DNA of 64,000 bases from Spirochaetaceae bacterium (GTDB lineage: Bacteria; Spirochaetota; Spirochaetia; DSM-2461), in assembly GCA_965224705.1 (NCBI GenBank), contig OZ245056.1:1248001-1312000 (forward strand), given 5' to 3'. Position numbers: made by a program. Shown in pieces: positions 15,001 to 21,000 of this stretch. Each line of letters opens with the position of its first letter. Within the stretch, counting starts at the first letter, position 1.

Positions 15001-18000
15001 GTCCTGGATGGTTGATTTTTTGCGGAAAGAAAAAGGGTTATCCCTGGAGCTTAGTTCCCTGTTTCTGTCTTTGTATTTTGCCTTCATGACAGGCGGACGG
15101 CTTCTCGGCAGTTTCTTTGTGACTCGTATTGGATATTTCAGAGTCATGATTATCGCCGTTATTTTGTCTATCCTGACTTTGGCTGGCGGGATTTTTCTCG
15201 ATAACAGCCTGGCAATTCTTCTCTCTATAACGGGATTTTTCTACTCTATAATTTTTCCAACAGCGACTGCAATGGCTGTGGAAAAAACAAAAGCATCCAT
15301 TGGCCTTGTGTATAGTTTACTCTTTTTTTCCGCCGGGATCGGGGGGATTCTCGGGCCATGGTTCTCCGGAAATATCGCTAACGCTTTTACAATTTTCACC
15401 GGATTTTCAATGGCTATCATTTACGCGGGAGTTATGCTGATTATTCTTTTATACCTTGGGGGCACCTCTAAAAAACACAGTTAGGATGACACTGGCGATT
15501 CTTGGACACCCTGTTCCAGCTGTTCAACAACCGACCGGACATATTTAAGTATCATTCGATCCCGAAGTTGTTCTTCCTGGGTATACAGCAAAGGAGTTTC
15601 AACCTTGCCGGGGCCTGCCTGCAAGTCGCCGAAATGATCTTTCCATTCGCATTCATTCAGCACCAAAGGATGCATGCCGTAGTACTCGCCGGACTTTTCC
15701 TTCTTTTTCCTGGTTTCCCTGGCCACATTTACTTCCTTCACACAATAGTCAGTACCCAGGAAGCGGCGGCTTACAAGAAACAGCACGGCATCGGCTGATC
15801 GGATTTCCTGCTCCAGCCGTGGATCCCACTTTTCACCGTTTTTCAGTTTCCAATCCCCATAATACTCAAAGAACACCGCTCCCGGTATCCGCTGCAACTG
15901 ATCAAGGCTCTGGATAACGATATCAAGGATTTCCTCCTCTTCTTTCTTATAGGCCACAAACAATTTTTTCTTTCGGCCTTTTGCCGGTATGGGGAGAATG
16001 TCTTGCCTGTCCGTCGGCCGCGTCATTTCGCCGGACCGTGTATAGTTTTTAATTCCGGCTCTTTCCAGGGTTTCCGCAATGCTCTGCAGAACCGGATCAA
16101 GAAAATCCTGAACGGCCATGCCGCCCTGGTTTTTTGTCTGAACTTCTATGGTGCCCTGCTGCCCGAATTCCCCCCTCCCAGGTTAAAGCTAATCTGGATG
16201 AGATTGCCCTTGATCATCAGGCCCTCCCCGCAGCGAAAATAGAATACCTCATCCCTCCAGGTGGAGCCGACATTGGCCAACCAGTTATTCACTACCCCCC
16301 GGTGCAGAAACGGGCATCTGAACTGGACCGTGCTCGTTTCACCGTCGTAATTATCAAACATGTTGCGCCACTGGCGGTTGCGTGCATCGCAGAGTTCGGG
16401 AAGGATGTACGCTTTTTCGTAAAATGGGGTGTTTTTGGGTGTTGTCTCGAACGCGGCGGCGCAGGATACCATCATGGTCAGGAAAAGCTTATGCTCGTCT
16501 TCCGTGTTATCGGGCCAGACTTCTTTGGCCATAAAGGCGTAGAATTTTCCGTTGTCTTTCCTTATCAGTGTGATCCATGTTTTCTTTCTGTCAAACAGTG
16601 CGTAGACGGCGTCGAGCATCCACTGCTGATCCAGGATAATCTGCCCCCTGAACAGATCCGGTTGATAAAACAGCTCCCCGCTGCCGTGCAGGTATTGCAG
16701 AAGCGTGTCGGGGGCCGGGCACTGCGCCTCTTTCTTGAATTGATCTTTGTCCAATAGCTTTTCGTTCTTTCGGCGTTCATTGAGTCTCTCAATAACCTTC
16801 GGCCATGCCTTTGGCAGGGGATATTTTCTTCTCTCTGATGCCCTTTGCAATTTGAGACGGATATCCTCTGTGGTGTATTTCAAATTCGTCCTGTCATTGA
16901 AGGCATTGGGAACTGTCACCTTGTCCAGGGCCGTCTCGTTATCCAGCATCCGCTTGGCCTGATCCCAGGGATCGGGCTGTTTGGACGGCGCGGGGGCAAT
17001 CTCCACGGGCAGAATCCGTGCGTTGGGGGAAGCGGTTTTCGCCATGTCCAGCCAGTAGGCCAGAGATTTGTTTTCCCATTCCCAGCCCTTTCCGTCTGCC
17101 TGTTTTTCAGGCTCGTCCCGCCGGTAGCAGAGAAGGATGCCATCAACGGATTTCATAAACAGATGATGGGTGGCCAGGTAGAGGTCCTGTCCGCCAAAGT
17201 CCCAGAATTTTATGGCGATGCCTTCCACGTTAATGCGGCGAATGACGATGCCATGGGTGGATTCCTCATCTTCCTGCAGCTTTTCGCCATTCAATGCCTT
17301 CAGCAGTGTGGTTTTTCCTGTTCTCCCGTTGCCCAGAACCAGCCATTTCCTTATCCTGTTCTCCACTTCTCCCTTTGCTAGTTCCTCAAAGTAGTCATTG
17401 GCGGCGGGGATGCAGTTGTCCAAAAAACTATCTCCAAGCAACTCCAGAGGGAAGTCACTCAGGGGATTGCCATGCAAGCGTAGATCATCGAGTTTCAACA
17501 GGAAGCGCGGGAAGTCTTGTATGCCGCAACCGTGGAAATTCGCTGTAACAAGTGAATCCAGCCCCTCCAGGGCCCTCAGGTCGGACAGGTTTTTGCAATT
17601 TGAAGCATGAAGTACCTCCAGGGTCTGCAGTTTCTGAAGAACGTTCAGGGTCTTCAGGTGGGGATTCCCGCCTAAGCTGATTTTCCTGATGGCGGTCAGC
17701 CCCTCCAGGATCCTCAGGTCGGACAGGTTTTTACAGCTCCAAGCATCAAGTTCCTCCAGGGTGTTCAGTTTCTGAAGAACGTTCAGGGTCTTCAGGTGGG
17801 GATTCCCGCCTAAGCTGATTTTCCTGATGGCGGTCAGCCCCTCCAAAGCCCTCAGGTCGGACAGGTTTTCACAGTCTGAAACATCAAGTTCCTCCAGTGC
17901 CTGCATTTTCTGAAGCCCGTTCAGGTTTTCCAGTCGGGGATTCCTCTTTGAGTTGATTTTCCTGATGGCGGTCAGCCCTTCCAGGGCCCTCAGGTCGGAT

Positions 18001-21000
18001 AGGTTTTCACAGCCTGAAACATCAAGTTCCTCCAGTGCCTGCATTTTCTGAAGCCCGTTCAGAGTCTTCAGGTGGGGATTGTCGCTTAAGATGATTTTCC
18101 TGATGGCGGTCAGCCCCTCCAGGGCCCTCAGGTCGGACAGGTTTTCACAGTCTGAAACATCAAGTTCCTCCAGTGCCTGCATTTTCTGAAGCCCGTTCAG
18201 AGTCTTCAGGTGGGGATTGTAGCGTAAGATGATTTTCCTGATGGCGGTCAGCCCCTCCAGGGCCCTCAGGTCGGACAGGTCTTCACCGAATAAAACATCA
18301 AGTTCCTCCAGTGCCTGCATTTTCTGAAGCCCGTTCAGGTTTTCCAGTCGGGGATTGTCGCGTAAGATGATTTTCCTGATGGCGGTCAACCCCTCCAGGG
18401 CCCTCAGGTCGGAGAAGTTTTCACAGCCTGAAACATCAAGTTCCTCCAGTGCCTGCATTTTCTGAAGCCCGTTCAGGTTTTCCAGTCGGGGATTGTCGCG
18501 TAAGATGATTTTCCTGATGGCGGTCAACCCCTCCAGGGCCCTCAGGTCGGATAGGTTTTCACAGTCTGAAACATTAAGTTCCTCCAGGGTCTGCAGTTTC
18601 TGAAGTAGGTTCAGGGTCTTCTGCCGGGGATTCTTGCTTAATCTGATTTTTCTGATGGTGGTCAGACCCCCCTAGGGCCCTCAGGTCGGAGAGGTTTTCA
18701 CAGCCTGAAACATCAATTTCCTCCAGGCCCTGCAGTTTCTGAAGAACGTTCAGGGTCTTCAGGTGAGGATTGCGGTATAAGTCAATTTTCCTGATGCTGG
18801 ACAACCCCTCCAGGGCTCTTAGGTCGGAGAGGTTCTCACAGCCTGAAACATCAATTTCCTCCAGGGCCTGCATTTTCTGAAGCCCGTTCAGGTTTTTCAG
18901 TCGGGGGTTCCCGCGTAAGATGATTTTCCTGATGGCGGTCAGCCCCTCCAGGGCCCTCAGGTCGGACAGGTTTTCACAGTCTGAAGCATCAAGTTCCTCC
19001 AGGGCCTGCATTTTCTGAAGCCCGTTCAGGTTTTTCAGTCGGGGGTTCCCGTGTAAGCTGATTTTCCTGATGGCGGTCAACCCCTCCAGGGCCCTCAGAT
19101 CGGAGAGGTTTTTACAGCCTGAAACATCAAGTTTCTCCAGTGCCTGCATTTTCTGAAGCACATTAAGGGTTTTCAGTCGGTGATTGTAGCTTAAGTTAAT
19201 TTCCCTGATGCTGGTCAACCCCTCCAGGGCCCTCAGATCGGAGAGGTTTTTACAGCCTGAAACATCAAGTTCCTCCAGGGTCTGTAGTTTCTGAAGCCCG
19301 TTCAGGTTTTTCAGTCGGGGGTTCCCTCGTAAGATGATTTTCCTGATGGCGGTCAGATCCCCCAGGGCACGCAGGTCGGAAAAGCTCTTCAGATTGCCGT
19401 TCCCTGTTATGGCCAGAGTTTTAAGCCGCTGAAGCCCTCCCAGCGCATCGAAATCGCCGAAGTTTCCGCATCCATACAGTCCCAATTCCTCCAATGCCGG
19501 GAGGTTTCCCAGTCTTTCAATAGAGGATAATAGGTGATTGTTGTGAATGATCAACCGCTTAAGATGTGTCAGTCCATTGATTTCGTCTGGAAACCGCTCG
19601 AAATGTAGATCCTCCAGCTCCAGCGATTCATTCCGTCCATCGCGACAGTGGATAATCGCTTTGCGGGCCCTTTCAAAATCCGCCTTTCTTCTATCGCCTG
19701 TATAGGTCATGCCGTCATGTCCATGCTAAACGCCGTCTCCCTTTGCTTGATGGCGCTATTCTATCGGAAAACAGAAGGCTTTTCAATGGAATGACTATCC
19801 CCATATAACTCCCCCCGTCTACCGGTTTCAAAGAATGAAATCAGAAAAAGCTGAGCGCTAATATGCCATAACGGAAAAATGTCAACAGCGGAGCAAAAGT
19901 TCTGGAATTTTGCGGTTTCAAACTCCCGCTTTTGGGTAGAATTAAACAGAATCAACGATTTTCTAACCAGTCTTCATCCGGGATGAATCGCGATTACCTC
20001 CATCAGATAAGCCCTATTTCGCCGTTTCATGATGTCAGCATGTCGAGATCCGCCCAGGGATCCCTGCTGGAGGACGATTCTCAATTTGCTGGCCGGGCCA
20101 GCCGGAACCCGATTGAGAGATTGCTATCGCCAGGGCTGAAGTGGCTGCCGTTCCGATAGACCCGGGTCGAGCCCGAAGACGGCCCAAAATGTTCACCATG
20201 TAGAAAACAACCTGACACAGACCTGAACGCAACTCCAAAATCATGCTATCCTGTAAACGAGGAAATTCATCCGAGAATACAAAAAGTATTTCACCGAGAC
20301 ATGTCCCGGGCACTTCATCGGCAACTATGGGATGTACAAAACTCACACCATCAACATTGAAGCCATCCGATTATCGGGACCTGACGGAGTCTTTCTATCC
20401 GAATTCTGTCGGAATATTGACCGCTTATCCGGCCAGGCTGAAATCAAGGAGTCTGTCGGACTTTAAGGCTTCGAGGCGATTTTTGATGATTTTTTCCTGA
20501 TGCAAGGCGACAAAAACGGAGCGTAGCTGGGCTACGTGAGTATTTTGGCAACGCAGCAGCAGGGAAAAAGGGCAAAAATCGAGCCGTGAGGCGTAAGTCC
20601 GACAGACTCCAAGGAGTCCGGTTTCCCCAAACAGATTATTGACAAACTGCTTAAGGGCATTATAAGGAGAACAATATGGTACCTGTTGCCGATGTAACGG
20701 AGCTGATGAGACCTCAACTTGAAAAGGCCTGGGATGACGGAATAGAAAAGGGCAAAAAAGAAGGCGAAAAAAAAAGCCATAGCCCAAACAGCCAGGCGCT
20801 TAAAGGCCGCCGGAGCCGACATGGAACTCATCATCAAGACCACCGGCCTGAGCGAAGAAGAGATCCAGAAACTCAAACAGGAACAAATCTCCCCCATTGA
20901 TAGCCCCACTACAGAAAACCGCTCAGATTAAAATATCTCGGAATTTCACTTGCTCTTTTTGTGTTCTCCATGCAAGATTAGGTTAAACTACATGAATAAG

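Follow-up and report, generated by a model that had tools for sequence, protein, structure and literature searches.

When a TIR protein is encoded directly behind a bacterial LRR-Roc-COR (Roco) protein, are the two separate genes or parts of a single one? This question is raised by positions 15481-19710 (minus strand) of the window, a 64,000-nt stretch of a Spirochaetaceae genome, where three ORFs encode LRR, LRR-Roc-COR and TIR_2 proteins. The initial annotation described a two-gene module with a separate TIR gene 26 nt downstream of the Roco frame. Our analysis instead indicates that the locus is almost certainly one gene of ~1400 codons that has been broken into three ORFs. The full reading, a broken single-chain LRR-Roc-COR-TIR gene whose product is an NLR-like sensor when intact, was given a probability of roughly 0.75. 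From N- to C-terminus, a cap is followed by thirteen double-LRR units of 46 residues each, the Roc GTPase, COR-A/COR-B and finally the TIR domain, distributed as follows.

19710-18574, minus strand: ORF 1, 378 aa; Pfam identifies LRR only
18527-16146, minus strand: ORF 2 (P0002), 793 aa; Pfam LRR, Roc (3.8e-13), Arf/Ras and COR-A (3.2e-18)
16119-15481, minus strand: ORF 3, 212 aa; Pfam TIR_2 (1.7e-10)
18574-19710, minus strand: fragment 1, N-terminal cap and LRR units 1-5 (Pfam, unit table); N-terminus matches the intact 1406-aa protein P0008
18667-18675, minus strand: break 1, one extra base (coding-strand A, position 18673) beside a G6 run; +1 frameshift in LRR unit 5
16146-18671, minus strand: fragment 2, LRR units 6-13, Roc, COR-A and most of COR-B; open frame of 841 codons
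16169-16176, minus strand: break 2, loss of a single base that generates a G6 run; -1 frameshift in COR-B
15481-16182, minus strand: fragment 3, end of COR-B (modeled last helix and strand), linker and TIR domain; open frame of 233 codons
17559-19380, minus strand: tandem repeat of 138-nt units, each encoding 46 aa (two LRRs); TRF 138 nt x 13.2, 86% matches
17019-17348, minus strand: Roc G domain (Pfam Roc, residues 394-503 of P0002)
16389-16814, minus strand: COR-A domain (Pfam COR-A, residues 572-713 of P0002, E 3.2e-18)
15643-15960, minus strand: TIR_2 domain (Pfam TIR_2, 1.7e-10)

The Pfam content first assigned to the three ORFs was recovered throughout, as was the frameshift proposed within the LRR array: the frame switches near 18670, the downstream one being readable back as far as 18671 and the upstream one closing at 18574. 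All 13 array units stay in register across this break (unit table), and the final ~30 codons of fragment 1 ahead of the stop at 18574 are out-of-frame read-on. P0008 is an intact single polypeptide of 1406 aa with 82-85% identity to the window fragments (fragment 2, 82% across 792 aa; fragment 3, 85% to residues 1175-1406), and a second intact protein from the same genus (P0004, 1394 aa) has the organization LRR-Roc-COR-A-TIR_2. LRRs, an AP-GTPase, COR and a C-terminal TIR are therefore found on one chain in P0004 and P0008, and in the window only if the sequence is read across two frameshifts.

The second frameshift lies at the Roco/TIR junction. The TIR frame stays open for another 21 codons ahead of its ATG (to 16182), where it overlaps the end of the Roco frame. 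These codons, which are included in the fragment 3 match, share homology with the linker between COR and TIR in intact relatives. DNA alignment with a genome of the same genus (G012) placed a 1-nt gap at the junction, where intact alleles read L-G-E-G-E-F. It is this 1-nt frameshift at 16169-16176 that creates the appearance of a separate TIR gene; the locus does not contain a complete Roco gene accompanied by a TIR gene with a start of its own. Structural modeling agreed with this view. An AlphaFold 2 model of P0005 (pLDDT 82.8, pTM 0.73) matched the Chlorobium tepidum Roco protein (CtRoco) with a Z-score of 28.2 for 6hlu_A (rmsd 3.0 across 482 residues; model residues 11-568 covered) and 26.6 for 3dpu_A. 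The "Met1" of the TIR ORF corresponds to residue 535 of this model, in which the first ~30 residues of the 212-aa ORF are predicted to form the closing helix and strand of COR. The TIR ORF is thus a frameshift product, and the two-gene module was abandoned. The proposed functional link between Roco switch and TIR is supported nonetheless, and is tighter than first envisaged as both reside on one polypeptide in intact relatives.

Public sequencing runs were used to follow both breaks among related strains. The extra base of break 1 is absent from run X3 (44.6/44.6 depth) and kept in X1 (0/16.5) and X4 (0/37.1), while frame-restoring insertions at break 2 were found in X4 (61.9/61.9), X3 (47.4/47.4) and X1 (20.4/31.2). 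Accordingly, X4 has break 1 without break 2 and X3 has neither. As X1 contains both breaks while X4 combines break 1 with an unbroken junction, the two segregate independently, like alleles. Since other strains carry alleles without either break, the local copy is probably a strain-specific pseudogene; the initial caution that it may be dead was correct, yet understated the damage at one break instead of two.

Could the gene nevertheless be intact in this strain, with both frameshifts being sequencing or assembly errors caused by homopolymers in a repeat-rich gene? Both breaks touch two of the three G6 runs in the gene, the genome is a single 3.0-Mb contig, and the C2 copy of the sister MAG has several frame changes in its LRR array. 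Against this, separate Logan assemblies of X1 match the window exactly at either break (record 3, 0 differences; record 6, 1 difference and 0 gaps), although X1 may be the sample behind the genome assembly itself, in which case its agreement is not independent. X4 repeats break 1, yet its junction is unbroken and belongs to a haplotype that linked SNPs set apart, and the indels are gains or losses of an A next to a G run, whose own length is not what changes. Errors at both sites are consequently unlikely, and we consider both breaks very probably real in this strain.

The repeat array retains the signature of a diversifying sensor surface. TRF placed the 138 nt x 13.2 array exactly where the initial annotation had it; the 46-aa register was likewise sound, with 13 rather than 11 units counted, and the variable tetrads (ILRD, NLSY, SLHG, DLYR, NSKR) were recovered at positions numbered 8-11 of the unit here. 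Across the window gene, P0008 and P0004, entropy peaked at unit positions 8, 10, 11, 31, 33 and 34. At the x positions of LxLxxN/C, which are set by the LRR consensus but were chosen after the entropy profile was seen, pN/pS was 1.77 compared to 0.40 elsewhere, with a pS of 0.21 in both classes. The variation is thus located on the predicted ligand face. Plant NLRs similarly confine their hypervariation to the LRR face.

Downstream of the array, Roc is directly followed by COR in one polypeptide, as defines a Roco protein, according to both Pfam and the fold matches of P0005; this COR-A domain is the only one in the 3.0-Mb genome. The Roc domain has kept its P-loop (GNGRTGKT), switch I (STHG) and G3 (DFGGQ) motifs, but its G4 position reads PVEIAP, leaving the G-motif set (G1, switch I Thr, G3 DxxGQ, [NT]KxD-like G4) incomplete through replacement of G4. 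The same site reads P[VI]EIAP in five clade members, and is mostly VQxxCD/NKxD-like in the other 46 aligned homologs. Because the clade is without this guanine-specificity motif, GTP-dependent switching is not assured. With P-loop, switch I and DxxGQ kept, it is conceivable, if doubtful, that the Roc-COR switch of the spirochaete LRR-Roco-TIR clade no longer reads GTP specifically. The G4 motif refines membership in the Roco family and does not define it.

The TIR profile matched plant and bacterial TIR structures. Residue E129 of the 212-aa ORF (codon 15733-15735) aligns with the Glu of "WCLDE" in the plant TIR 3jrn and occupies a position that is nearly invariant (at least 90%) among 51 fused homologs. 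We take the Glu at this position to be the catalytic residue of TIR NADases, making E129 the candidate catalytic residue here; a predicted TIR fold with a conserved Glu is a feature of catalytic (NADase) TIR domains. With PADLOC, the TIR ORF was again ThsB-like (7.9e-10) and the other two ORFs gave nothing meaningful, as had been noted at the outset, and no model covered the gene beyond this TIR match.

Neighboring genes encode a serpin, a multicopper oxidase, an MFS transporter and an ABC peptide transporter, bearing out the earlier caveat that no defense island surrounds the locus. The G012 genome has three paralogs, whose TIR homologs share 51-66% identity across residues 2-205 and are embedded in open frames of 742, 1396 and 1032 aa; close to these paralogs are transposases and a Schlafen/AlbA_2 gene, the latter with a pAgo-associated PADLOC match. 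COR-A is sporadic in the phylum (7 of 401 genomes), and the window gene is located at a synteny break. Diversification of the LRR face, the G012 paralogs, sporadic COR-A, the synteny break and the near-invariant TIR Glu are all features of the conflict type.

Taken at face value, the intact protein found in other strains and the sister species would act as an NLR-like sensor on a single chain. An invader-derived ligand would be bound by the hypervariable concave side of its LRR solenoid, upon which Roc-COR may operate as a nucleotide-dependent switch of oligomeric state, like its Chlorobium counterpart, with the direction of switching assumed. TIR domains brought together in this way could form an active NAD-cleaving site, and the infected cell would be killed or arrested. 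An anti-invader role of this kind is, in our estimate, slightly better than an even bet. In the literature library searched, no experiment ties any bacterial LRR-Roc-COR-TIR protein to defense. Of the four copies seen across both genomes, three carry disruptions, so the function may also be dispensable.

The runs holding the locus are labeled mollusc metagenome. Because of this label, a role towards an animal host is possible: the protein could be a eukaryote-like LRR/TIR factor of a mollusc-associated spirochaete, acting against or with its host instead of sensing phages. Interference with TIR signaling or depletion of host NAD would be examples. LRR and TIR domains are common to animal innate immunity, the flanking serpin is likewise eukaryote-like, and diversifying LRRs would fit any arms race. 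However, no secretion signal or secretion-system context emerged for the gene (a dedicated signal-peptide predictor was not part of the analysis), the architecture is shared with free-living Thioflexithrix, Nitrospira, Methylocystis and Lysobacter, and the G012 paralogs adjoin transposases and the Schlafen/AlbA_2 gene. We therefore regard a host-directed factor as improbable.

An operon whose LRR-Roco product would license a distinct TIR protein of 212 aa in trans fares considerably worse. It would account for the ATG-initiated ORF 26 nt past the Roco stop and for an earlier tally that put TIR_2 near COR-A in 162 of 2866 genomes, but not for the in-frame homology to intact fused proteins before that ATG, the 1-nt gap relative to relatives, the frame-restoring alleles in three runs or the modeled COR ending of the "TIR protein". 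Distribution is also against it. No separate TIR gene adjoined any of the 8 further Roco loci sampled in the phylum (scan of one or two ORFs per side), one of which has a fused TIR, whereas 68 of the 120 listed homologs are LRR-Roc-COR-TIR fusions by hand count; the fused architecture is widespread. A separate TIR gene is accordingly very improbable. Hardly credible is regulation of the sensor by programmed frameshifting or phase variation at the G runs since, although both breaks sit beside G6 runs and broken and unbroken alleles coexist in the population, G6 is short for slipped-strand switching and the alleles differ by an A and linked SNPs, which implies distinct lineages without rapid switching. 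Nor did any structure that would stimulate frameshifting come to light, although no search was aimed at one. Under the one-gene reading, intact, half-broken and doubly broken alleles in a mollusc-associated population may offer a natural series on Roc-COR gating of a TIR NADase and its cost to the cell.

A function for bacterial Roco proteins, with Roc-COR upstream of TIR, had been put forward as new, but was already predicted in 2021. Kaur, Iyer, Burroughs and Aravind (eLife 2021; PMC8195603, section 15) described prokaryotic conflict systems built on an AP-GTPase (equivalent to Roc) and COR, in which the N-terminal LRRs evolve rapidly and the effector at the C-terminus varies, TIR being among those listed; as presented in that section, the work is computational only. 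By its sequence, the locus appears to be a decayed new instance of this design, predicted there as a bacterial immune receptor. Its intact orthologs share with the systems of that section varying LRRs (consistent with the entropy and pN/pS values), a Ras-like Roc, COR and a C-terminal TIR in the same order, as well as several paralogs per genome (G012) and a variable C-terminal position, which in relatives is CHAT (PF12770), MCU-like or without a recognized domain. Unlike those systems as described, the local copy has two frameshifts and the spirochaete clade is without G4. LRR-face variation, the kept Glu, clade-wide absence of G4, and segregating intact and broken alleles are what this locus adds.

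Comparison with other systems places the gene further. CtRoco (PDB 6hlu, 3dpu, 8r4b), a structural model for LRRK2, shares the LRR-Roc-COR fold (sequence E-value 9e-32) with conserved P-loop and DxxGQ, but identity is only ~20%, the match is limited to the LRR-Roc-COR part with none over the TIR, and the spirochaete G4 is not recognizable. The bacterial gasdermin preprint of Johnson et al. (10.1101/2021.06.07.447441) names a Roc-COR-CHAT protease, the gasdermin-activating protease of Runella; like the gene described here, it joins a bacterial Roc-COR to a cell-death effector, but there a protease acts on a gasdermin encoded separately, in place of a fused TIR. Neither a CHAT nor a gasdermin domain was present in the ORFs scanned at the locus. 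With Thoeris, the gene shares a TIR whose best PADLOC match is ThsB1 (7.9e-10) and the conserved Glu; here, however, the TIR belongs to a Roco protein instead of being a stand-alone sensor, and no ThsA-type (SIR2 or Macro/SLOG) partner was found among the neighboring genes. STAND-type sensors (Avs/bNACHT) and plant TIR-NLRs likewise combine a repeat sensor, an NTPase switch and a death effector, but the spirochaete protein has as its switch a Ras-like TRAFAC GTPase joined to a COR dimerizer rather than a STAND ATPase, and while those proteins run effector-switch-sensor, the gene described here runs sensor-switch-effector.

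The locus at 15481-19710 holds the fragments of one LRR-Roc-COR-TIR gene interrupted by two breaks. Three consecutive minus-strand open reading frames (ORFs), their Pfam and PADLOC assignments and a 138-nt repeat were all found as the initial annotation had them:

19710-18574, minus strand: ORF 1, 378 aa, with Pfam matches to LRR families only
18527-16146, minus strand: ORF 2 (the Roco fragment), 793 aa from a TTG start, in a frame open back to 18671; LRRs, Roc (3.8e-13), Arf/Ras and COR-A (3.2e-18) in Pfam
16119-15481, minus strand: ORF 3, 212 aa; TIR_2 in Pfam (1.7e-10) and a ThsB-type TIR in PADLOC (7.9e-10)
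17559-19380: tandem repeat of 138 nt x 13.2 copies with 86% matches (Tandem Repeats Finder)

PADLOC returned nothing meaningful for ORFs 1 and 2, the Roco part giving only chance-level P-loop matches. These features had been parsed as a two-gene module, with a separate TIR protein 26 nt downstream of a frameshifted LRR-Roco sensor; the features are real, but the three ORFs are pieces of a single decayed gene, and the annotation is corrected accordingly. At the first break, ORFs 1 and 2 overlap in different frames over 18574-18671, and the coding strand reads ...ccct-a-gggggg-tctgacc... where other repeat units read ...ccctggaggggttgacc.... With an X placed at this break, the LRR-Roc-COR part comprises 1187 residues, and its 46-residue units, 13 in all, stay in exact register.

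The second break separates COR from TIR. Here no stop interrupts the TIR frame in the 21 codons before its ATG (back to 16182), and this upstream part overlaps the 3' end of the Roco frame. The TIR was found in only two others among the 41 related genomes searched (the window's own included), and close relatives in species-representative genomes were limited to the two loci of G012, a same-genus genome, in a TIR alignment search. In G012, the TIR lies within open frames of 742, 1396 and 1032 aa. One copy (P0004) is intact, with 1394 aa comprising LRRs, Roc (774-885), COR-A (950-1090) and TIR_2 (1240-1347), and the other two (P0005 and P0006) are N-terminally truncated. DNA alignment showed that the window is one base short relative to G012 at the COR-TIR junction, which reads ...LLGQGEFRQKGTIAVRTKGLSGQAVQDFL... 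in G012 and is divided in the window between the Roco frame (...NLGGG) and the TIR frame (...GEFGQQGTIEVQTKNQGGMAVQDFL...). A protein database search also identified P0008, a 1406-aa protein encoded on a 2.8-Mb contig, that shares 82% identity with the Roco fragment over all 792 aligned residues and 85% identity with the 233-codon TIR frame, including the codons before the ATG.

An AlphaFold2 model of P0005 (51-sequence alignment; mean pLDDT 82.8, pTM 0.73) was compared with known structures using VIA-align, whose list of matches was taken up by Roco, LRRK and small-GTPase chains and thus bears on the non-TIR part only. The model (residues 11-568) superposed on Chlorobium tepidum Roco 6hlu_A with a Z score of 28.2 and an rmsd of 3.0 over 482 residues, and on 3dpu_A with a Z score of 26.6, extending to residue 576. 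The putative first methionine of the window TIR corresponds to model residue 535; as the superposition runs past this point, helix 535-554 and strand 560-563, with which the presumed separate TIR protein begins (~30 residues), complete the Roc-COR fold. A separate TIR gene is thus contradicted by the upstream extension of both frame and homology, by the 1-nt gap and by the placement of these residues within the Roc-COR fold.

Both breaks adjoin runs of six G, which are two of the three such runs in the gene and so raise the suspicion of sequencing error. Logan contigs from four public sequencing runs were aligned to the locus; the alleles of three of the runs are given below.

Alleles at break 1 (18673) and break 2 (16169-16176) in public runs
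X1 (organism label shared with the window), break 2: one contig matches the window over 16106-16255 with 0 differences (depth 10.8); another haplotype, marked by linked SNPs, regains the frame through an additional base (20.4/31.2)
X1, break 1: 18535-18721 covered by a contig that has 1 difference from the window and no gap; extra base absent in 0/16.5
X4 (other sample, same study), break 2: frame-restoring insertion in 61.9/61.9
X4, break 1: extra base present (absent in 0/37.1)
X3 (other study, labelled mollusc metagenome), break 2: frame-restoring insertion in 47.4/47.4
X3, break 1: extra base absent in 44.6/44.6

Read against the plus strand, the unbroken alleles encode ...LRALGGLTTIRK... 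at the LRR break; at the junction they encode ...LGEGEF..., as P0008 does. Breaks 1 and 2 segregate separately, on haplotypes told apart by their SNPs, and each is an A gained or lost beside a G run of unchanged length, which argues for real mutations in this strain rather than sequencing error; we put this at about four chances in five, with X1 possibly being the source of the assembly itself and its platform not given. Programmed frameshifting or phase variation, which would make the breaks regulatory, is an unlikely explanation of them. Intact and broken forms constitute an allele series within the population. The RNA run (X8) contributed four small contigs at a depth of about 4-6 from the LRR part, and none across Roc, COR or TIR, too little to speak for or against transcription.

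The TIR sequence of the window (...SRRFLGTDYCVKE...) matched plant and bacterial TIR structures in a profile search. E129 aligned with the glutamate of "WCLDE" in 3jrn, which we take to be the NADase catalytic residue, and this position is nearly invariant (>=90%) in 51 fused homologues. The Roc domain has kept its P-loop (GNGRTGKT), STHG and DFGGQ motifs. At the position of G4 (16990-17060 in the window; about residues 490-512 of ORF 2), a P[VI]EIAP motif stands in the spirochaete clade, consisting of the window gene, the three G012 copies, P0008 and P0009 (five members in the alignment); most of the other 46 Roco-TIR homologues in the alignment have VQxxCD/NKxD-like motifs there. Judged by this alignment, loss of the G4 motif is specific to the clade, and the nucleotide specificity of its Roc domain may differ.

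Along the 46-residue LRR unit of the window gene, entropy has two groups of peaks (positions 8, 10, 11 and positions 31, 33, 34), and the variable tetrads of the initial annotation are these same positions. P0008 and P0004 present the same peaks with some shifts, and P0004 is also high at 6, 9 and 20. The peaks fall on the x positions of both LxLxx(N/C) motifs in the unit, which in LRR structures generally form the exposed concave face. Across the 13 window units, pN/pS (Nei-Gojobori) was 1.77 at the six peak codons versus 0.40 at the other 40, a somewhat flattered contrast as the positions were set by the LRR consensus yet after the entropy profile was known; pS was 0.21 in both sets of codons. 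Diversification of the LRRs is, on this sequence evidence, restricted to the predicted ligand face.

Bacterial Roco proteins serve as structural stand-ins for human LRRK2, and the literature searched assigned them no tested cellular role; the fused TIR (or CHAT and other death-type domains in relatives) offers the best clue to it. Domain identity and conservation suggest a mechanism in which sensing by the LRRs would switch Roc-COR, and the TIR domains would then assemble and cleave NAD. Searches on Roco, AP-GTPase, LRRK2 and phage defence topics identified no study in which a bacterial Roco-TIR protein had been put to an experimental test. The pairing of Roc-COR, instead of a STAND ATPase, with TIR had been put forward as new; however, the architecture has been in print since 2021, being that of the prokaryotic conflict system centred on AP-GTPase proteins in section 15 of Kaur, Iyer, Burroughs and Aravind (eLife 2021, PMC8195603). 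A preprint of 2026, by authors of the same school, states again that an AP-GTPase can stand in for a STAND NTPase as the switch, and a bacterial gasdermin preprint (10.1101/2021.06.07.447441) names the activating protease of Runella "Roc-COR-CHAT". The locus belongs to a computationally predicted class of known architecture and adds no new principle; specific to it are the population allele series, the G4 loss of its clade and an LRR diversification restricted to one face. In practical terms it is of modest value; P0008 and P0004 are a close pair of intact templates for expression tests.

Using the Roc-COR-TIR part of P0004 as query, 214 proteins were matched at E <= 1e-5. TIR_2 was present in 68 of the best 120 of these (hand count), a share biased upward because the query contained TIR, and 65 of the 68 also had COR-A. 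Fused examples among the matches listed came from Thioflexithrix, Lysobacter, Methylocystis, Nitrospira, Vibrio chagasii and Flavobacterium, and other matches listed had C-terminal CHAT or further domains. Within the phylum sample, COR-A occurred in 7 of 401 genomes (the window's own included), six of which exceed the family cut-off. The eight other Roco loci above this cut-off comprise one fused LRR-Roc-COR-TIR protein (1158 aa), three LRR-Roc-COR proteins whose C-terminal part has no further Pfam match, one Roc-COR protein without LRRs, one with an MCU-like C-terminus and two fragmented genes. At none of the eight did the scan of the nearest one or two ORFs per side find a separate TIR gene. 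Broken fusions can enter neighbor statistics that count a TIR lying within two genes of COR.

The MCU-like case, in genome G143 (L026:1058-4831, minus strand), is a 1257-aa LRR-Roc-COR-A-COR-B protein with PF04678 (7.5e-16) at residues 1110-1240; by sequence, this mitochondrial calcium uniporter family domain would occupy a membrane-channel-type effector position. The fragmented genes are L025:6342-8982 (also G143), where separate LRR and COR ORFs adjoin an IS200-like transposase, and L029:6232-8971 (G320), where COR-B is split from COR-A. The two other TIR_2 matches in the window's genome lie outside the window (C1:2546995-2551719, plus strand, and 551127-555878, minus strand). Their ORFs (L033:1496-6220 and L034:1628-6379) encode 1574 and 1583 aa with about 14 C-terminal WD40 repeats, and are probably TIR-NTPase-WD40 sensors whose central domain is masked by WD40 families in the Pfam list.

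Decay of Roco genes seems frequent. Of the G012 copies, copy 1 alone is whole. A DDE transposase interrupts copy 2, leaving an LRR remnant on the far side, and the contig-2 copy has its LRR array scattered over five or more frames. Inside one host-associated genus, receptors of this kind are quickly gained, duplicated and lost. The transposase within the LRR array of copy 2 is a DDE_Tnp_1 (L009:16382-18268), and a Mutator-family transposase lies near the tandem copies (L009:3066-4322). Between copies 1 and 2, a 661-aa Schlafen/AlbA_2 and HATPase_c_4 protein is encoded (L009:11170-13155, plus strand), which PADLOC matched to pAgo-associated PNTD proteins (1e-16).

To the right of the window gene lies an ABC peptide-transporter operon (20950-26607) that three same-genus genomes share at 80-88% amino-acid identity, and none of the window content left of 20900 lies beside the operon in these genomes. 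The MFS gene on the left flank has no orthologue in five relatives (only 22-28% identity matches), so the Roco-TIR gene sits at a synteny break. The neighbors are as ordinary as initially listed (serpin, multicopper oxidase and MFS); the serpin (PF00079, 2.3e-102) adjoins the two-domain multicopper oxidase at 11324-14252 on the plus strand, left of the Roco-TIR gene.
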